Shown here piece after piece: positions 10,502 to 20,027 of a DNA stretch of 64,000 nt. Both the position numbers and the translations under genes were made by a program. The notes beneath the pieces are model-generated. The model was not told the origin of the DNA. It did no database searches and worked only from the letters and a program-made list of their open reading frames with translations. The number at the start of each line of letters is the position of its first letter. Positions within the stretch are counted from its first letter, which is position 1. Source of the stretch: Bacilli bacterium (GTDB lineage: Bacteria > Bacillota_I > Bacilli_A > RFN20 > CAG-826). The stretch spans positions 2,039 to 66,038 of the forward strand of contig JAGBLE010000001.1 in assembly GCA_017635565.1 (NCBI GenBank). The letters run 5' to 3'.

Positions 10502-11677
10502 CTATCTTTTTAAATTATACAATGTAATTGGTCCATCTTTCCTTATAAAAATCTCAATAACATTGTCTTTACCATATTTTTTTGAAAGTTCTTTAATGGC
10601 TTTATCCAAATATTCATCTTGAATAACCCCAATCACACTTCCAGCAAATCCACCACCATTGATTTTTATTGCACCATGGTTATTAGTGGCTTTCATAAAT
10701 AAATCACAAGCCTGAAGAGGACTACCTTCATATTGGTTTTCCACCATCATATTTTTTAAGTTATTAGTGGATGATAACCTCGATTCATTAATCGCATCTA
10801 AGAAAGCTTGTTCATCTTTATTTTTAAGAGCATCCATCGCGTTTCTTACGCGTTTATTTTCTGTATAGAAATGAACGCTTCGAGAATATTGGATATCAGT
10901 TAAGTTATGTTTAACACTTTCAAGTTCTTCTAAAGATCCTTCAACCAAGAAACGTTTTTTCATCTCGTTAGCGGCAAAAATCATATCGCTTGGAATTGAA
11001 GAATATAAATTGCTTAAAGAAGAATGATCTCCACCGGTATTGATTAATAGGAAGTGAAGATTATCAAATGGGAATTCGATTTGTTCAACAGTTGGGTTAT
11101 CAATATCTTTAAAATCCATTTGAACAACCCCGCCAAAACCAACTCCGATTTGATCAAGAAGTCCACTCTTTTTGCCAAAATATTCATTTTCTGCAAATTG
11201 TCCAGCCTTGCATAAAACCATATGAGGAACATTTCCTTCATTAAAGAAAACATTAAATAAATGAGCAACTAATAATTCAAAGGCCGCGCTTGAAGAAACA
11301 CCTGCCCCTCTAAAAATTGTTGAAATAGTATAAGCATCAAATCCACCGATTTTATATCCGTGTTTATCTAAATAATAAGCAATGCCTCTAATTAAAGAAG
11401 CGCTGTGTTCTTTTTCTTCTTGATGCATTGATAAATCAGAAACATCTAATTCATCCATAGGATAACCTAAAGATTTTAAATTAATTTGAGTGTCTTTTCT
11501 TTTTCTAGCAGCCGCCATAATTTGTAAATTACACGCTGAAGCAATGCATAGACCATGGTTATGATCAGTGTGATTACCTAAAATTTCAAATCTTCCGCCA
11601 CAAGAAGCAACAATGTCTGCTTGTCCCTGGAAATAAGCTTCAAAGTTATCGAGTAAAGTTTTAATTTGTTCTTCCAT
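10502..11677 (-). CDS. galactokinase-family GHMP sugar-1-kinase
   Basis: GGRFEILGNHTDHNHG corresponds to the GalK signature GRVNLIGEHTDY. GHMP motif GAGVSSSAAFELL and C-terminal GGGFAG. Confidence 0.75.
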   Translation of the reverse strand: MEEQIKTLLDNFEAYFQGQADIVASCGGRFEILGNHTDHNHGLCIASACNLQIMAAARKRKDTQINLKSLGYPMDELDVSDLSMHQEEKEHSASLIRGIAYYLDKHGYKIGGFDAYTISTIFRGAGVSSSAAFELLVAHLFNVFFNEGNVPHMVLCKAGQFAENEYFGKKSGLLDQIGVGFGGVVQMDFKDIDNPTVEQIEFPFDNLHFLLINTGGDHSSLSNLYSSIPSDMIFAANEMKKRFLVEGSLEELESVKHNLTDIQYSRSVHFYTENKRVRNAMDALKNKDEQAFLDAINESRLSSTNNLKNMMVENQYEGSPLQACDLFMKATNNHGAIKINGGGFAGSVIGVIQDEYLDKAIKELSKKYGKDNVIEIFIRKDGPITLYNLKR

Positions 11678-11686
11678 ATTGTTTAA

Positions 11687-12667
11687 TTACCTATTAGAAA
11701 ATATATACTTAATTGTTCGAGAATATAAGTGGTCTTTTTTCAAAAGATGTAACTTCAAATGTGAGTCACTTGGTTCAGCAGCGATGCTATCAAATATTTT
11801 ATCGCATTCTGGAGCAAGAACTGCACTACAAGAAAAGCCAGAAGTATAAATTTGCATCCCCTCAAAATCAGTGTATATATCCATTACATATTTTGAATTA
11901 GATAAAGAGGCATTTTTAATATTTATATCCTTATTAATAAAATAGAAATAATGATCATATCCATTAAGTTTAGGAGCTTTTAATGATTCGCTTTCAATAT
12001 CTTTGCCAATTAATTTTGGATTTCTAAAATCAAAAACATCAGTGACTTTTTCAATCCCAAGAGGAATTAAGTCATTACCATTTGGATTTAAATATCTATC
12101 TGAATTAATGAAAAGAGTGAGGTTCTTGCATGTTTTCTCACCTAAAGTAAAGTAAGTATGATTAGTTAATGATAAGACTGTATCCTTATCGCTTTTAGCA
12201 GAAAAAATAATATCTATTTCATTATTGAATAAGAAAACAATATATTTAATCTCAAGATTTAAATTACCTGGATAACCATCTTCTAAATCTTTTACTAGTG
12301 TTGAATAAATAACTTCTACCTTATTAGAATCACAATTAGTTTTGACATCAAATTTTCGATATGAAAGTCCATGCCTTCCACCATGAAGAACGTTATTGCC
12401 TTCGTTAGCAGCTAATTCATATATTTCTCCATTAAGAGAAAATTTGTTTCCTTTAATTCTATTCGCAGTTCTTCCAACTGTTTTTCCATAATATAAATCT
12501 GAATTTGAATAATCTAAAAGATTCTTAACGTTTCTTGTTAAAGATTCTTCGTTAAGTTTAATTTCAAAGATTGCAGCCCCTTCATCACAAAAAGTAACTT
12601 CTAAGCCACATTCATTTGTCACCTTAGTAAATTGTCTTTTGTTAATAATAGAAGTAGAGATATTCAT
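11687..12667 (-). CDS. galM: aldose 1-epimerase (mutarotase)
   Basis: YGKTVGRTANRIKGNKFSLNGEIYELAANEGNNVLHGG matches the aldose-1-epimerase core. Confidence 0.8.
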   Translation of the reverse strand: MNISTSIINKRQFTKVTNECGLEVTFCDEGAAIFEIKLNEESLTRNVKNLLDYSNSDLYYGKTVGRTANRIKGNKFSLNGEIYELAANEGNNVLHGGRHGLSYRKFDVKTNCDSNKVEVIYSTLVKDLEDGYPGNLNLEIKYIVFLFNNEIDIIFSAKSDKDTVLSLTNHTYFTLGEKTCKNLTLFINSDRYLNPNGNDLIPLGIEKVTDVFDFRNPKLIGKDIESESLKAPKLNGYDHYFYFINKDINIKNASLSNSKYVMDIYTDFEGMQIYTSGFSCSAVLAPECDKIFDSIAAEPSDSHLKLHLLKKDHLYSRTIKYIFSNR

Positions 12668-12669
12668 AT

Positions 12670-13230
12670 TTACTTCATAAATTTACGGCCATCGCTAAAA
12701 GCTTGTCCAACTTTTTCGCCAACAACATAATAGCCGTGATTAAATGGATCATAAGCAATAATTTTTAGCTTAGCGACATCAACCTTACCTTTATTATCCA
12801 AATATTCTTCATCAACGGAAAGTCTAACGATGTCACCTAATACTCCATATTCGCCTTGGAAAGGAGCATCTGTACATTCCATGCAAATTGCAAAATCATC
12901 TAAAATTGGAGCATCAACTAAATCTGATTTATGAGACTTCAATCCAGTTTTTGCAAATTTGTCTTTGACTTTTTTTGCTGAAACTAAGCCAAGATAATCA
13001 GCTTCCGCAATATGATTAGCGTCAGCAACAGTTACAGTAAAGGCGCCTGTTCTTTTGATGTTAATAAATGTTTGATGTTCAGCACTGATATTGAGCTGAA
13101 TTTGCTTATAATCATAGGCAACTCCCCAGGCTGCATTCATGACATCAACTGTACCATCTTCGTTATAAGTTGCGATTAAAATGACTGGCATTGGAAAAAT
13201 CGCAGGGACGGTAGGAATTTTCTTTTTCAT
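12670..13230 (-). CDS. flavin reductase-like (FMN-binding split-barrel) protein
   Basis: PMPVILIATYNEDGTVDVMNAAWGV is typical of flavin-reductase-domain proteins. 186 aa. Confidence 0.65.
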   Translation of the reverse strand: MKKKIPTVPAIFPMPVILIATYNEDGTVDVMNAAWGVAYDYKQIQLNISAEHQTFINIKRTGAFTVTVADANHIAEADYLGLVSAKKVKDKFAKTGLKSHKSDLVDAPILDDFAICMECTDAPFQGEYGVLGDIVRLSVDEEYLDNKGKVDVAKLKIIAYDPFNHGYYVVGEKVGQAFSDGRKFMK

Positions 13231-14384
13231 TACTCTCTCTCCTTTAAAAACCTAAGTAATCTATTACAGAATTGAAGGATAATTTCCTTCTGTGTAGCAA
13301 TATTAATTCTAATAAAACTAGAATAGTGTTCATGATAATGTTTCCCGCTGCCAACAATAATCTTAGCGCTCCTTTTTAATTCTTCAGTAAACGCTTCTGA
13401 ATCATTGGAATAATAGGAAATGTCAATCCACAATAAGTAAGTAGCGAAACCACTAATAATTTTCATTTTAATATCGTTTTTGACCAAAAATTCCGCTAAA
13501 ATTCTTCTATTTTCTTTAATATATTCGTTTTCTTCATTTACGTATTGTTCACATTTTGTATACGCTGCAATAACTGGTTCAATCGAGAAATATGATGGCT
13601 CACCCACATCATCTTCGTAAACACCTTTTTGAATTAGTTCTCTTAAGTCTTTATCTCTAATAATTATTACGGAAGAATGTAATCCAGCGAGGTTAAAAGT
13701 TTTCCCAGGAGAAACAAGCATTATTGCCTTTTCATAATCTACAAATTTAAGAACTGGATTATATCTTTTTTCGTTATAATCTAAGTCCGAATGTATCTCA
13801 TCACTAATGATGTAAATATTATATTTTTTACATATCTCAACAATACGTTTAATCTCGTTTTCTGAAAATTGAATTCCAATTGGATTATGTGGATTACAGA
13901 GTATAAATATTTTTGATTTCTGAACTTCTTTTTCAAACAAATCCCAATCAATGGAATATTGATAATCTTTGTAGACAAAAGGAATTTCTAATACTTTGCG
14001 ATTATTATTTTCAATGCAGTTAAAGAAGACGTTGTAATTTGGTGCAAATAAGGAAATATAATCTCCAACTTTCGATATTCTTTTGATGATTGAATCAATC
14101 GACGCCACAACACTAGTGGAAAAAATAAAATATTCTTCTTTTAAATCTAATCCATAGCGGTTCTTCCACCAATGAATATAAGCTTTATAGTATTCATTTG
14201 GCACGAAAGTATATCCATATGTTGCATCATTTGAACGAGAAATAATCGCTTCTTGAATTTCATTAGCCACCAAAAAATCTGTGTCAGCAATGGACAGAGA
14301 AATTTCGTCTTGAGAAACATCCCATTTATATGAATGGGTTTTTCTTCTATCGATTTTTTGATCAAAGTTATATTTATTTGCCAT
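13230..14384 (-). CDS. PLP-dependent C-S lyase, MalY/PatB family (cystathionine beta-lyase-like aminotransferase)
   Basis: N-terminus KYNFDQKIDRRKTHSYKWD is the MalY/PatB hallmark. Start set to ATG 14384 (the track starts at a TTG at 14390). Overlaps the DUF3737 stop codon. Confidence 0.75.
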   Translation of the reverse strand: MANKYNFDQKIDRRKTHSYKWDVSQDEISLSIADTDFLVANEIQEAIISRSNDATYGYTFVPNEYYKAYIHWWKNRYGLDLKEEYFIFSTSVVASIDSIIKRISKVGDYISLFAPNYNVFFNCIENNNRKVLEIPFVYKDYQYSIDWDLFEKEVQKSKIFILCNPHNPIGIQFSENEIKRIVEICKKYNIYIISDEIHSDLDYNEKRYNPVLKFVDYEKAIMLVSPGKTFNLAGLHSSVIIIRDKDLRELIQKGVYEDDVGEPSYFSIEPVIAAYTKCEQYVNEENEYIKENRRILAEFLVKNDIKMKIISGFATYLLWIDISYYSNDSEAFTEELKRSAKIIVGSGKHYHEHYSSFIRINIATQKEIILQFCNRLLRFLKERE

Positions 14385-15225
14385 TTCCAATAATTATTTC
14401 AGTTTTATTCTTGTCGATATTATTGTCGTCAAATATTAATTCCTTAACGCCTAATACTTTTATTTTCCCAGAGATTGGATTTTTAATCGAATCAACAACA
14501 CTTCTAATCTCCGCATCAATATCTGAACAATATTCAAAGCAAAGTGTTGTATTGATTAATTCACAATTGATGAGCTTCACGTTTTCCATATAACAAAGCC
14601 CTTGGTTTGAAGAAATTTTGCAGTTTATGAATGTGATATTTTTACTATTCCATGCGAGATATTCGCCGTCAATCGTGCAATTAATGATCGTGACATTTTC
14701 ACAATTCCAGAAACTATCTTTACTATTGAGAACTGAATTTCTAATAACAATATTTCTTCCACCATCGAAACAATAATTACCATCTAAATATAAATCAGTA
14801 ACATCAACATCTTCAGAATTAAATCCAAAATAATCACCAGTTGCTTTTACATGATTGATGGTAACGTTTTTACATTTCCAGAATGTTTCTTGGGCATTAG
14901 GAAGGTCGGTGTTAATTAATTTAACTCCATCACATCTTCTAAATGTTTTTGGAGCGATAATATTACAATCGACAAATTCAATATTATTTGTATACCAGAC
15001 TCCACTTCTTGCGGTTTCTAAAAAAGTGACTCTGTTACATTTAACATCTTTACAATACCAAAGAGGATATTTCCACCTAAATTCAGTATTTTCAATTGAA
15101 AGGTTTCTACTTTCTTTAAGTGGAGATTCACCATCTTCAAAAACACAATTTGAAATATGAGCGTCCTTACTCATAAATAGAGCGCGCTCACCAGTATATG
15201 TTCCTTCTTGATATTCGTATTTCAT
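14374..15225 (-). CDS. DUF3737-family right-handed beta-helix protein
   Basis: GERALF...GESPLKESRNL...WKYPLWY motifs and periodic N/C-rich beta-helix repeats, recalled as DUF3737. Confidence 0.55.
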   Translation of the reverse strand: MKYEYQEGTYTGERALFMSKDAHISNCVFEDGESPLKESRNLSIENTEFRWKYPLWYCKDVKCNRVTFLETARSGVWYTNNIEFVDCNIIAPKTFRRCDGVKLINTDLPNAQETFWKCKNVTINHVKATGDYFGFNSEDVDVTDLYLDGNYCFDGGRNIVIRNSVLNSKDSFWNCENVTIINCTIDGEYLAWNSKNITFINCKISSNQGLCYMENVKLINCELINTTLCFEYCSDIDAEIRSVVDSIKNPISGKIKVLGVKELIFDDNNIDKNKTEIIIGNGK

Positions 15226-15268
15226 GGCTGAATAATATTAACAAAATAGATATTTTGTTTCAATACGA

Positions 15269-15931
15269 TTATTTAGAACTTATCAATTTATCGAGATAAT
15301 ACGCTAATTCTTCTGTCCCTTCATCGTTTAATGCAGACACTTTGAAAACTTTTGCATTCTTATTTCTTTTGTGAATATATTCTTTACATTTTTCAAAATC
15401 AAAATCGAAAACAGGTAATGTATCGATTTTAGTAATGACTGCGATATTGCTTACTTGGAACATAAGTGGATATTTTAATGGTTTATCATCGCCTTCTGGC
15501 ACTGAAAGAAGCATCATATTGATATCACTACCAGTGTCAAATTCGGCAGGACACACTAAATTTCCAATATTTTCTAAAATCACTACATCTAAACCATCGA
15601 CATCAAACTCATTAATCGCATCACTAGTCATTTGGGCTGTTAAGTGACACGCTCCTGAAGTATGAACTTGGATAGATTTTACTCCGGTTAATTCTGATAT
15701 CCTTTGAGCGTCAACTTCTCCATCAATATCAGCTTCCATAACTCCGATTTTATATTTATTTTTTAATTTGTTGATTAAATTCACCAAAAGTGTCGTCTTT
15801 CCTGCTCCAGGAGAAGCCATGACATTGATAAAATAAATTCCTTTGTTTTTTAAGAAATTCCTCACTTGTTCTGCTTTTTTATTGTTTTCTACTAAAATAT
15901 CTTCTTTAACTTTAATAACTCGATAATCCAT
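15269..15931 (-). CDS. hypB: hydrogenase/urease-type nickel-incorporation GTPase HypB (paralog 1)
   Basis: P-loop SPGAGKTT, GACH metal-site motif, ENIGNLVCPAEFD and TKID (NKxD-like) motifs. Confidence 0.85.
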   Translation of the reverse strand: MDYRVIKVKEDILVENNKKAEQVRNFLKNKGIYFINVMASPGAGKTTLLVNLINKLKNKYKIGVMEADIDGEVDAQRISELTGVKSIQVHTSGACHLTAQMTSDAINEFDVDGLDVVILENIGNLVCPAEFDTGSDINMMLLSVPEGDDKPLKYPLMFQVSNIAVITKIDTLPVFDFDFEKCKEYIHKRNKNAKVFKVSALNDEGTEELAYYLDKLISSK

Positions 15932-16044
15932 AAGCTAATTCTTTCTTTTTCTCTAATATTATAAATATTTATTTGAAAGTCGTGCAAAATTTAATAAAAT
16001 AAACCTGGTCTCGCATATACGCGATAAATTAATTAAAAAGAAAT

Positions 16045-16719
16045 ATGTCAGAAATCAAAACTATTGTCGTCAACCGTTCAGCCTACGCTGATAATGATTT
16101 AGAAGCCGATTATTTACGTAAATATCTTAAGGAAAAAGGTACTTATGTTGTTAATCTTATGTCTTCTCCTGGAGCAGGAAAGACCACGACATTAACTAAG
16201 CTTATCAATATTCTTAAATCAACATTCCGCATTGGAGTAATGGAAGCCGACATCGATAGTGATGTTGACGCAATCTCAATTGCTAAAAATACTGGAGTTA
16301 AATCAATTCAACTCCACACTTCTGGAATGTGCCATCTCGACGCTGGCATGACCAAAAGTGGACTTGATGGAATAAACATTGAAGACCTTGACCTCGTCTT
16401 CCTTGAAAATGTTGGCAATCTTGTTTGCCCTGCTGAGTTTGATACAGGGGCTTGCTTAGATATCATGATTCTTTCCATCCCAGAAGGCGATGATAAACCA
16501 TTAAAATATCCTCTCGTCTTTGAAAAATGCGATTTAGTTATCATCAACAAGATAGACACAATTAGTTACTTCAATTTCGACTTTAAGAAATGTGAAGAAA
16601 CAATAAAGATGCGCAACCCTAACGCCACTATTATCCCAATAAGTGCTAAAACGGGAGAAAATGTCGATAAGGTTGCCCAATATTTCATAGAAAAAGTTAA
16701 TAACTGGAAGGAGAAATAA
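16045..16719 (+). CDS. hypB: nickel-incorporation GTPase HypB (paralog 2)
   Basis: SPGAGKTT, GMCH, ENVGNLVCPAEFD, NKID. Divergent from paralog 1. Its stop codon is 1 nt from the next ATG. Confidence 0.85.
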   Translation: MSEIKTIVVNRSAYADNDLEADYLRKYLKEKGTYVVNLMSSPGAGKTTTLTKLINILKSTFRIGVMEADIDSDVDAISIAKNTGVKSIQLHTSGMCHLDAGMTKSGLDGINIEDLDLVFLENVGNLVCPAEFDTGACLDIMILSIPEGDDKPLKYPLVFEKCDLVIINKIDTISYFNFDFKKCEETIKMRNPNATIIPISAKTGENVDKVAQYFIEKVNNWKEK

Positions 16720-16720
16720 C

Positions 16721-19615
16721 ATGCCAGAGAAAAATACAAAAATCGTCTCTAAGTACGAAGGTGAAAAAGGCTATGCTTATGAAAAGAAGCTTTGCAAAGT
16801 CGCCAAAAAAATCACCGACATTGTTCCACACAAATTAGGCGGTGTGAAAACAACTGATCACGAATACTGGGGATTAAGAGAAGTTCTTACCGAACCAATG
16901 ATTGACGTTCTCTTAAAAATGAAACAACGTCAACACTACACATTTGAAGAAATGTGCAAATTGTGCAAGGAATTCAAACCAGTCGAACTTCAAAAATTAT
17001 TAGACGAAATGTCAGTCGTCGGTATTATTGAATACGATTACGGTGATAATTACGCTTGGGATCATCCAATTGAAGATGCACCAAAAATCAAACGTTATAT
17101 GCTTTCATATTTCGTTCCTGGAAGTGCAGAATTAATGAACTCATCCGTTGATAGAATTGCCAAAAACCCTGCAGTTGCATCATTCTTTGAAAGAATGACA
17201 TTCAGCCCACTTGCTGGAATTACTGAAATGGTTCCTCCAGGAGGAGACGGAATTGGAATGCATGTTATTCCAGTTGAAAAAGCGATTGAAAACGAACAAA
17301 CATCCATCGATGTAGAACACATCTCACACTGGATGAAAAAATATGAAGGTCATATCTCCGCTGGTATTTGCTCTTGTAGAGCAAGTAGAGCCATGCTTGG
17401 AGAAGGCTGTATTGATGATGTCGATGATTGGTGTATCCAATTCGGTGATATGGCGGATTACACAGTTGAAACTAATCGTGCCCATTACATCACTAAAGAA
17501 AGAGCCTTAGAAATCTTTGAATTAGCAGAAAAGAATGGCTTCGTTCACCAAATCACCAATATCGATGGTGAAAACAAAATCTTCGATATTTGTAACTGTG
17601 ATGTCAAGATTTGTAACGCTTTAAGAACTGCATTACTCTTCAATACGCCTAACCTTGAAAGAAGTGCTTATACCGCTAAAGTAACAACCGAGAACTGTGT
17701 TGCTTGTGGACAATGTGTTTCAAATTGTCCTGCAGGCGCAGTTAAATTAGGTCAAAAGCTTTGTAAGAAAGATGGTAAGCCAGTTGAATATCCACAAGCA
17801 CCACTCCCAGATAAAATCAAATGGGGTAAATATGCTTGGGATGAAAATTATCGTGATACCGCTAGAAAACACGATACATATGAAACAGGAACCGCTCCAT
17901 GTAAAGTTGCCTGTCCTGCTCACGTTCCAGTTCAAGGATATCTCAAAATGGCCAAAGAAGGCCGTTATAGAGAAGCTCTTGCTTTAATTAAAACTCAAAA
18001 CCCATTCCCTGCTGTTTGTGGTCGAGTTTGTAATAAAAAATGTGAAGAAGCTTGTACAAGAGGAACAATTGATAAACCAGTCAGTATTGACGCCGTTAAG
18101 AAATTCTTAGCAGATTTGGAAATCAAATCAGAAAATAGATATGTTCCAGAAAAGATTGTCGCTAGCGTTTACGGCAAATTCGATGAAAAAATCGCCATTA
18201 TCGGTGCTGGTCCAGCTGGATTAAGTGCAGCCTATTATTTATGCGAAATGGGCTTCAAACCAACAGTTTTTGAGAAAAATGAAAAACCTGGTGGAATGAT
18301 GATGTATGGCATTCCAACTTATAAACTCGAAAAAGACGTTATCGAAGCTGAAATCGATATCATTAGAGCACTTGGTGCTGAAATCAAATGCGGAGTTGAA
18401 GTTGGTAAAGATATCACCATCGAAGAACTCAAAAAACAAGGATATAAAGCCTTCTATATCGCAATTGGTTGCCAAGGTGGAAAACGTCCTAACGTTCCAA
18501 ACGACACCGCTAAAGGAACAGATATCGCTGTCAATTACTTAAAAGATGTCTTTGAAAACAAAAAAGATTTCACCGGTGATGTTGTTGTTGTCGGTGGAGG
18601 TAATGTCGCCATTGACTGTGTCAGAGCCGCACATAGATTACACGCCAAGAGTGTAAAAATGTTCTGCCTTGAAAGTAGAGACACAATGCCTGCTACTAAC
18701 GAAGAAGTTAGAGAAGCTCTTGAAGAAAATGTTGAACTCAACAACGGTTGGGGTCCAAAAGAAGTCAAAGTCAACGCTAAAGGTGAAGTTACTAGCATCG
18801 TCTTTAAGAAGTGTTTATCAACAATTGACCCAGAAACTGGCAAGTTCTCACCTAAATATGATGAAAACGAAACCATGGAAGTCAGTGCTGATAAGATTGT
18901 CTTCGCTATCGGACAAGAAATCGTTTGGGGAGATTTACTCAAAGGAAGCAAAGTTACTTTCTGGCATGGTAATTACCCACTCGCAGATAAAGTTACTTAT
19001 CAAACCGCTGATGAAGATATCTTCGTTGGTGGAGATGTCTTCACTGGACCAAAATTTGTTATTAACGCTATCGCAGCTGGTCATGAAGTCGCTGATGCTT
19101 TAGCAAGACACGTTAGACCAAACGCTCACCCAACTATCGCCTTCAACCACCGCGGATTCACTCCACTCAATAAAGAAGATATTACTCTTCCTGGATATGA
19201 TGATGCTGGTCGACAAGAAGCCGGAATGGATGAATCTGTTGATTACAAGAATTCCTTCAAAGATGCTCATAAGACCTTAACTGAAGAACAAGTTAAAGTT
19301 GAAACAAGTAGATGTTTATCTTGTGGTCAAGCAGTCGTTGATCCTCATAAATGTATTGGATGTGGTATTTGTACCACAAAGTGTCATTTCGACGCCATCC
19401 ACTTAGTGAGAGATCATCCACAAAATTCCAATATGAGAAAAGCCGAAAATAAAGTCGGTGGACTCCTCAAATACGCTCTTAAACGTGAAATTAAGATTCT
19501 CTTCTATTCCGGTTCTAAAGAAGCAAAGATGATGAGAAAGAAACGCAAAGAGTGGAATAAATACTATAAAGAAGCGAAAAAGACAAAACCAGACACAGGT
19601 TACGCTGTTGAATAG
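16721..19615 (+). CDS. 964-aa multidomain Fe-S flavoprotein oxidoreductase (Cys-rich N-domain + ferredoxin + GltD/NfnB-like FAD/NAD(P) module + C-terminal ferredoxin)
   Basis: CSCRASRAMLGEGC...ICNCDVKIC; CVACGQCVSNCP; GltD-type CKVACPAHV...CGRVCNKKCEEACTRG; Rossmann IAIIGAGPAGLSAAYYL; CLSCGQ...CIGCGICTTKC. Confidence 0.65.
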   Translation: MPEKNTKIVSKYEGEKGYAYEKKLCKVAKKITDIVPHKLGGVKTTDHEYWGLREVLTEPMIDVLLKMKQRQHYTFEEMCKLCKEFKPVELQKLLDEMSVVGIIEYDYGDNYAWDHPIEDAPKIKRYMLSYFVPGSAELMNSSVDRIAKNPAVASFFERMTFSPLAGITEMVPPGGDGIGMHVIPVEKAIENEQTSIDVEHISHWMKKYEGHISAGICSCRASRAMLGEGCIDDVDDWCIQFGDMADYTVETNRAHYITKERALEIFELAEKNGFVHQITNIDGENKIFDICNCDVKICNALRTALLFNTPNLERSAYTAKVTTENCVACGQCVSNCPAGAVKLGQKLCKKDGKPVEYPQAPLPDKIKWGKYAWDENYRDTARKHDTYETGTAPCKVACPAHVPVQGYLKMAKEGRYREALALIKTQNPFPAVCGRVCNKKCEEACTRGTIDKPVSIDAVKKFLADLEIKSENRYVPEKIVASVYGKFDEKIAIIGAGPAGLSAAYYLCEMGFKPTVFEKNEKPGGMMMYGIPTYKLEKDVIEAEIDIIRALGAEIKCGVEVGKDITIEELKKQGYKAFYIAIGCQGGKRPNVPNDTAKGTDIAVNYLKDVFENKKDFTGDVVVVGGGNVAIDCVRAAHRLHAKSVKMFCLESRDTMPATNEEVREALEENVELNNGWGPKEVKVNAKGEVTSIVFKKCLSTIDPETGKFSPKYDENETMEVSADKIVFAIGQEIVWGDLLKGSKVTFWHGNYPLADKVTYQTADEDIFVGGDVFTGPKFVINAIAAGHEVADALARHVRPNAHPTIAFNHRGFTPLNKEDITLPGYDDAGRQEAGMDESVDYKNSFKDAHKTLTEEQVKVETSRCLSCGQAVVDPHKCIGCGICTTKCHFDAIHLVRDHPQNSNMRKAENKVGGLLKYALKREIKILFYSGSKEAKMMRKKRKEWNKYYKEAKKTKPDTGYAVE

Positions 19616-19624
19616 GGGCGTCTA

Positions 19625-19969
19625 ATGCACGAACTTGGTATCGTTGTTCACGTCATTAATCAAATTGAAGAACTCGCAAAGAAAAACAAAGTAAACAAAG
19701 TCGTTGAACTCACTCTCGAAGTTGGTGAAGTCAGCGGAGTTGTTAAAGAATACTTTGTCGACGCCTTTGAATGGGCAAAGAAAAAAACCGAATATATGAA
19801 AGAGTGTCATCTTGACTATATTACCATTCAAGGAATCACTTATTGTGAGGACTGTCAAAAAACTTACCCAACTGTTCAATATGGAAAAGAATGTCCATAT
19901 TGCCACAGCCCGCATACTTATCTAGTAACGGGTAAAGATGTAATGATTAAGAACATCAAAGTCGAATAG
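19625..19969 (+). CDS. hypA: nickel insertion metallochaperone HypA
   Basis: MHELGIV N-terminus (MHE nickel site) and a zinc site CEDC...CPYC. 114 aa. Confidence 0.85.
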   Translation: MHELGIVVHVINQIEELAKKNKVNKVVELTLEVGEVSGVVKEYFVDAFEWAKKKTEYMKECHLDYITIQGITYCEDCQKTYPTVQYGKECPYCHSPHTYLVTGKDVMIKNIKVE

Positions 19970-19973
19970 TTAA

Positions 19974-19993
19974 AAGAGAGGGTTCCCTCTCTT
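19974..19993 (+). terminator. rho-independent terminator after hypA
   Basis: AAGAGAGGG-TT-CCCTCTCTT followed by a T-run. Confidence 0.75.
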
Positions 19994-20027
19994 TTTTCAT
20001 ATTTCGAAAATATGTATAATAAAAGAA

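Follow-up and report, generated by a model that had tools for sequence, protein, structure and literature searches.

The stretch of DNA analyzed here, referred to as the window (64,000 nucleotides of contig JAGBLE010000001.1, assembly GCA_017635565.1, from a Bacilli bacterium of the lineage CAG-826), carries a three-gene operon in the order hypB–isrA-like–hypA, with a second, divergently transcribed hypB upstream of it. The central gene of the operon encodes an iron–sulfur flavoprotein of 964 amino acids, in the following called the reductase. The features of the locus, in window coordinates, are:

15269 to 15931, minus strand: hypB-1, 220 amino acids, with the motifs GAGKT, GACH and NLVCP and a TKID G4 motif (TIGR00073).
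15932 to 16044, no strand: divergent intergenic region of 113 nucleotides, containing a promoter-like site that would serve the hypB-2 operon.
16045 to 16719, plus strand: hypB-2, the operon copy of the HypB GTPase, 224 amino acids, with GAGKT, GMCH, NLVCP and NKID (TIGR00073).
16721 to 19615, plus strand: IsrA-type Fe–S flavoprotein, 964 amino acids, recognized by Pfam and NCBIfam matches and by invariant residues.
19625 to 19969, plus strand: hypA, nickel metallochaperone, 114 amino acids, with an N-terminal MHE and a C74-x2-C77/C90-x2-C93 zinc site (PF01155).
19972 to 19995, plus strand: hairpin resembling an intrinsic terminator and closing the operon, with a 10-pair stem, a 4-nucleotide loop and a T-rich tail.

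The map of open reading frames (ORFs) places all four genes where the preliminary description had put them: the stop codon of hypB-2 and the ATG of the reductase gene are 1 nucleotide apart, hypA follows the reductase gene after 9 nucleotides, hypB-1 is divergent, and the terminator-like hairpin lies directly 3′ of hypA. The promoter-like site upstream of hypB-2 (TTGAAA-16-TAAAAT, positions 15973–16000 of the plus strand) is a candidate by consensus match alone, the number of such sites in the 113-nucleotide region being about that of shuffled sequence. A small imperfect palindrome, TCGCATATACGCGA, lies at 16010–16024, in the stretch that separates the promoter-like −10 site from the start of hypB-2, and could act as an operator.

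Both HypB copies score far above the cut-off of the TIGR00073 equivalog (226 bits for hypB-1 and 223 bits for hypB-2 vs. 121), and they share 53% identity. In each, GAGKT (the P-loop), the CH pair and the NLVCP cysteine are retained; the metal-site motif that had been claimed for both paralogs is thus present, as GMCH in hypB-2 and as GACH in hypB-1. HypA matches PF01155 with 101.8 bits (cut-off 28.9) and has the N-terminal MHE as well as C74/C77 and C90/C93. Its score against the TIGR00100 equivalog, 75.6, stays below the cut-off of 88.1, indicating a protein of the HypA family but not a curated hydrogenase equivalog. The MHE and both CxxC motifs were found in 67 of the 67 adjacent HypA proteins examined from reductase loci.

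Pfam recognizes four domains in the reductase, Fer4 (residues 320–341), Fer4_20 (390–470), Pyr_redox_2 (490–787) and a further Fer4 (872–893), and leaves residues 1–310 without any match; the ferredoxin and GltD/NfnB-type modules read earlier from the sequence are thereby recovered, and the Cys motifs quoted for this protein are present. From the N-terminus, the order is a winged-helix-like unit (residues ∼40–135), a six-cysteine (Cys6) module, a Fer4 motif (C326–C336), a Fer4_20 of the type found in GltD and dihydropyrimidine dehydrogenase (DPD), an FAD (flavin adenine dinucleotide)/NAD(P) module with the motifs GAGPAG and GGGNVA, and a C-terminal Fer4. The Cys6 module is formed by C217, C219, C238, C291, C293, and C298, along with R220, H276, and N292. 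All of these residues are invariant across an alignment of 23 diverse homologs (24–58% identity), as is the ferredoxin motif C326/C329/C332/C336, and of the 84 homologs drawn from genome loci, 83 retain the six Cys together with R220, H276, and N292.

Sequence matches to PDB entries are confined to residues 371–870 (NfnA/NfnB, GltD, DPD, and formate-dehydrogenase-associated subunits). None of the NCBIfam equivalog cut-offs was reached: the protein comes nearest to the generic model NF009410, "NAD(P)-binding protein" (436 vs. a cut-off of 516), followed by YgfK (264 vs. 835), gltA (254 vs. 472), AegA (224 vs. 1003), and GltD (195 vs. 447). The cut-offs for GltD, YgfK, and AegA are missed by a wide margin, and over its full length the protein does not qualify as a GltD, NfnB, or YgfK equivalog. 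In an AlphaFold model of the N-terminal domain (residues 1–385; predicted local distance difference test score, pLDDT, 67.7), the winged-helix-like unit resembles winged helix-turn-helix (wHTH) regulators at middling scores only (VIA Z 6–7, Foldseek E of at least 0.04). The core of the Cys6 module modeled alone (residues 196–352, pLDDT 75) gave no solved analogue in the fold search, with a best VIA Z of 3.5 and nothing in Foldseek at E < 0.001, which leaves a new fold unproven. A prediction of the complex between the N-terminal domain and HypA, run without controls, gave no verdict (score 0.00) and says nothing either way about binding.

Judged by its domain order, its Cys6 site, and its gene neighborhood, the 964-amino-acid protein can be counted as a further member of the IsrA family, which is known but biochemically uncharacterized. 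IsrA itself is a 901-amino-acid, isoprene-induced putative isoprene reductase of Acetobacterium wieringae ISORED-2, encoded in the isr operon together with two hypA, one hypB, and a 350-amino-acid ferredoxin; the genome lacks a [NiFe]-hydrogenase, isoprene also induces HypA and HypB, and the ferredoxin has been reported only in the two isoprene-reducing strains of A. wieringae (Kronen et al. 2023; PMC10134865). The same authors described four canonical [4Fe-4S] sites and proposed as a possible nickel site a Cys6 "cluster V" that contains two CxC motifs (C180/C182 and C254/C256). They found "clade 9" homologs of IsrA to be widespread in anaerobes: among 988 of these, HypA is encoded within five genes in 73% and HypB in 56%, and DUF5692 is listed as a frequent neighbor (PMC10134865). 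Measured against this published description, our protein has the architecture, the Cys6 module with two CxC motifs, and the hypA/hypB neighborhood of the IsrA or clade 9 proteins. Nothing in the locus points to isoprene as the substrate, and neither Acetobacterium nor Pelotomaculum is named among the matches listed, including the best 120 with the closer subgroup representative P0163.

The linkage of the reductase with its chaperones extends far beyond the window. A scan of species-representative genomes gave 80 named loci with an N-domain identity of at least 52%, whose neighbors were called by ORF and jackhmmer analysis; 71 of these loci are informative for hypA and 74 for hypB. They belong to the Bacillota, Bacteroidota, Spirochaetota, Fibrobacterota, and Actinomycetota, the carriers being Erysipelotrichaceae and other Bacilli, many Clostridia, Bacteroidales, Spirochaetia, Hallerella, and Atopobiaceae, mostly represented by metagenome-assembled genomes (MAGs) from rumen or gut. 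The triad of the operon is conserved across these five phyla: hypA is a same-strand neighbor of the reductase gene in 69/71 loci, and hypB lies immediately upstream on the same strand in 49/74 and within 6 kb in 57/74. Even in five remote homologs (33–47% identity), whose neighborhoods are otherwise unrelated, hypA follows directly downstream; it is not downstream of a sixth (28% identity). Relatives of the reductase are abundant, with at least about 8000 clusters at E ≤ 0.001 in each of two protein searches, and the family is very common among rumen and gut anaerobes.

Other neighbors recur at some loci, namely, DUF5692 (15 loci), a GntR/FCD regulator (15 loci), and an ABC/FtsX transporter (9 loci); none of them is found in the genus of the window, and none pinpoints a substrate. 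In Oscillospiraceae, Lachnospiraceae, and Bacteroidales (15 loci within L062–L098; e.g., L098:8728-9840), DUF5692 (PF18948, 473 bits) is encoded just downstream of hypA, with the GntR/FCD regulator upstream. Two further loci, L032 and L034, have a tandem pair of IsrA-type genes with a single hypA in common. The largest "cluster" of neighbors in the locus analysis was an antisense-ORF artifact.

To follow the distribution of these genes within the lineage, we searched the MAG that contains the window (1.07 Mb, 73% complete) and 40 relatives; completeness is 90% or more in 31 of the latter. The reductase is encoded in 26 of these 41 genomes, and in 25 of the 26 an intact hypA lies on the same contig, ∼2–3 kb from the reductase gene; the exception is a reductase gene cut by the end of its contig. 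Where the reductase is missing (15 genomes), no intact hypA was found. One of these, G038, has a hypA-like sequence (G038:C1:57449-57751, 84.8 bits) that is interrupted by two in-frame TAA stop codons and looks like a decaying pseudogene. One might regard the hyp genes as functionless relics of a lost [NiFe]-hydrogenase cluster, since neither hydrogenase nor hypCDEF genes were found; we strongly disfavor this explanation and give it hardly any credence. The genes are intact and tightly coupled, their metal ligands are invariant across many taxa, the genomes are reduced to ∼1–1.9 Mb, where relics would not persist, and G038 shows that hypA does decay where the reductase is missing.

The genome of the window also encodes a second IsrA-type paralog of 943 amino acids on another contig (G000:C31, locus L015:6912-9743, minus strand), which is 43–47% identical and whose neighbors are a NERD nuclease, Lgt, and a CAAX protease. 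Two IsrA-type copies are also present in the related genome G004.

No other known client of the chaperones was found. The large subunit of [NiFe]-hydrogenase (PF00374), HypD (PF01924), the prismane family (carbon monoxide dehydrogenase, CODH, and hybrid cluster protein, HCP), urease alpha, and LarA all lack a match above cut-off in the 41 genomes, and in the MAG itself, at its 73% completeness, neither HypC (PF01455) nor an arginase-family protein was found. With neither the large subunit nor HypC and HypD, the locus does not qualify as a [NiFe]-hydrogenase maturation system. The absence of hydrogenase, urease, CODH, and LarA that the preliminary description had reported for the window hence extends to the whole MAG and its 40 relatives, and the combination named there as speaking against a nickel role of the reductase, a hydrogenase or urease cluster elsewhere in the genome together with a lack of synteny, is contradicted on both counts, as no such enzyme was found in the 41 genomes and the synteny is conserved.

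HypA/HypB-like chaperones are known to serve urease and Ni-dependent enzymes of the ureohydrolase family, such as metformin hydrolase. From such examples, and from the incompleteness of the MAG, it could be argued that the hyp genes serve a distant or unrecognized nickel enzyme, their position reflecting coregulation or inertia of gene order and the reductase perhaps being a mere supplier of electrons. We consider this improbable: besides the empty searches for hydrogenase, CODH, urease, LarA, HypD, and, in the MAG, arginase-family proteins, hypA is lost or pseudogenized wherever the reductase is absent, and the adjacency persists over five phyla and in unrelated neighborhoods with no second conserved enzyme beside the pair. 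Two roles had been suggested for the reductase at the outset, that of a nickel enzyme and that of an electron donor to one; nothing was found for the latter, no candidate partner being conserved beside the reductase gene, and the former, as the client of HypA and HypB, is the better supported by adjacency, phyletic coupling, and the lack of a rival client, while still unproven.

We therefore propose that the large reductase itself receives nickel from HypB and HypA, the site being its N-terminal Cys6 module, and regard this as the probable explanation of the locus. The adjacency of hypA and hypB across phyla, the strict phyletic coupling, and the lack of another known nickel enzyme in the 41 genomes make the reductase the likely nickel client. 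These genomic associations and the conservation of the residues are observed; nickel as the metal, Cys6 as its site, the path of the electrons, and the reaction are what we infer from them. HypB would hand nickel to HypA in a GTP-dependent step, and the Cys6 module of the reductase apoprotein would receive it from HypA. Once the holoenzyme is formed, NAD(P)H would reduce the FAD of the GltD/NfnB-type module. The [4Fe-4S] clusters, namely the Fer4_20 pair and those of the N- and C-terminal ferredoxin motifs, would relay the electrons onward as a chain that ends at the Cys6 site, at which the substrate would be reduced. If the analogy with IsrA holds, the bond reduced could be an unactivated C=C.

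In an alternative that we hold to be possible though unlikely, HypA and HypB are both needed for the reductase and the Cys6 module holds an iron-only cluster, similar to a double-cubane or P-cluster; the chaperones would then supply nickel to a different site, supply another metal such as zinc, or serve as scaffold or GTP-dependent assembly factor. Against this stands their established role as nickel handlers, together with the Ni-binding MHE conserved in all of the adjacent HypA proteins examined and the retained CH…C nickel site of HypB. In its favor, HypA also carries a structural zinc site, and the geometry of the Cys6 site has likewise been compared to P-clusters and [8Fe-9S] double-cubane clusters (Kronen et al. 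2023; PMC10134865).

That the Cys6 site might hold such an all-iron cluster is one of several points that weigh against nickel loading of the reductase. No family member has been shown to contain nickel, and the Ni-dependence of the IsrA family is still a suggestion in a preprint of 2026. Nickel importers of the NikM/CbiM and NiCoT types were found in 0/41 genomes by a search that did not cover ABC-type NikA-like systems, a result that also agrees with an iron-only site. In about one-quarter of the loci, no hypB lies within 6 kb, and the 943-amino-acid paralog retains every Cys6 cysteine as well as the His, Arg, and Asn yet has no hypA or hypB as neighbors; it may be served by the same chaperones in trans. 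The low completeness (73%) of the genome that contains the window has to be added to these points.

For the nickel-loaded reductase, a more specific version can be formulated, which we rate as rather doubtful: the Cys6 module would be a new nickel–iron–sulfur center that hydrogenates unactivated C=C bonds, the substrate in this lineage could be a conjugated diene from the diet, for instance a plant terpene or a conjugated polyunsaturated fatty acid, so that the enzyme would contribute to biohydrogenation in the gut, and the two HypB proteins (NKID and TKID) might form a dedicated heterodimeric GTPase. Only the analogy with IsrA and the carriers' habitat (Pseudobutyrivibrio and Roseburia loci are among them) suggest the dietary substrate. 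The neighbor analysis of the loci revealed no fatty-acid genes conserved beside the operon, and a literature search on conjugated linoleic acid (CLA) reductase gave no link to the reductase family, only the older assignment of CLA-R (Fukuda 2007) as a citation.

The idea that a reductase of this type is a nickel client has been published before (Kronen et al. 2023; PMC10134865); what we add is the clean phyletic coupling and the finding of no other known nickel enzyme in a lineage with small genomes. As these genomes have ∼1–2 Mb, one hypA, and no other known nickel enzyme that we could find, any nickel requirement should trace to the reductase, and the lineage offers a clean natural test case for nickel dependence. 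Confirmation of nickel would make the IsrA family a new class of nickel enzymes and a third type of HypA/HypB client, after hydrogenase and urease and after the Ni-ureohydrolases. For genome annotation, hypA and hypB beside an IsrA-type gene are no evidence of a hydrogenase.

The second HypB deserves separate mention. The operon copy combines NKID with GMCH, whereas the divergent copy combines TKID with GACH; this split holds in nearly all copies of the genus listed, the G4 pattern not being picked up in two of them. In a quick HypB tree, the divergent copies form their own well-supported clade on a long stem; their relationship to the tandem second HypB proteins of other taxa is left open at a node with an SH-like approximate likelihood-ratio (SH-aLRT) support of 85. 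The divergent arrangement was found only at the loci of the same genus and at L024, the locus nearest to them. There are hints that an arrangement with two HypB proteins recurs within the reductase family. Two tandem hypB genes beside the reductase gene were observed at L050, L054, L057, L058, and L063, which belong to unrelated taxa (Bacteroidaceae, Christensenella, Oscillospiraceae, and Lachnospiraceae).

On its other side, hypB-1 lies 43 nucleotides upstream of a tight operon (window positions 10502–15931 with hypB-1 included, minus strand) that encodes a DUF3737 protein (PF12541, 390 bits), a PatB-type C–S lyase, a flavin-reductase-like protein, GalM (aldose 1-epimerase), and GalK (galactokinase). 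No terminator-like site was seen in the gap between hypB-1 and the DUF3737 gene, which contains a promoter-like site. The suggestion that the divergent hypB leads this neighboring DUF3737–galK operon fits the spacing.

Compared with known systems, the core of the reductase is of a familiar kind. NfnB/NfnA, GltD, and DPD (PDB 9n5u, 5jca, 2vdc, and 1gt8) align to residues ∼371–800 with E values of 1e-41 to 1e-73 and share with the 964-amino-acid protein two [4Fe-4S] sites and the Rossmann folds for FAD and NAD(P)H; they lack its 330-residue N-terminal domain with the wHTH-like and Cys6 parts, as well as its C-terminal ferredoxin. The Fe–S flavoproteins of the YgfK, AegA, and YgfT type have in common with it a GltD-like core with extra ferredoxin modules, but they differ in the N-terminal domain, and no selenium or purine-pathway neighbors occur at this locus.

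The chaperones resemble those of hydrogenase and of the Helicobacter pylori urease in the MHE and Zn(Cys)4 sites of HypA and in the SIMIBI GTPase of HypB with its bridging CH…C nickel site. Neither HypB encoded here has a His- or Cys-rich N-terminal extension, which fits the "type 1" class of H. pylori-like HypB proteins; the HypB of the isr operon has been assigned to that class (PMC10134865). Unlike in the hydrogenase and urease systems, no hydrogenase, urease, or hypCDEF was found, the client would be a flavo-Fe–S reductase, and there are two HypB paralogs, the divergent one with TKID instead of NKID.

The nearest described relative is the isr system. Here, the gene order is hypB–reductase–hypA with an extra divergent hypB, compared with isrA, two hypA, one hypB, and the ferredoxin gene in the isr operon, and the host is a small-genome rumen or gut lineage of the Bacilli instead of an acetogen. 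The reductase is 63 residues longer than IsrA, with the CxC motifs ∼37 residues further from the N-terminus. Both proteins are of ∼900 amino acids and consist of an unannotated N-terminal domain, which measures ∼270–300 residues in the family's architecture, a Fer4, a Fer4_20 of the DPD/GltD type, an FAD/NAD(P) module, and a C-terminal Fer4. In both, the two CxC motifs are spaced by 74 residues (C180/C182 to C254/C256 in IsrA, C217/C219 to C291/C293 in the 964-amino-acid protein), and the ferredoxin motif begins 35 residues past the second CxC (from residue 289 for the Fer4 of IsrA). Flanking hypA and hypB genes, in a host without a [NiFe]-hydrogenase, are likewise common to the two.

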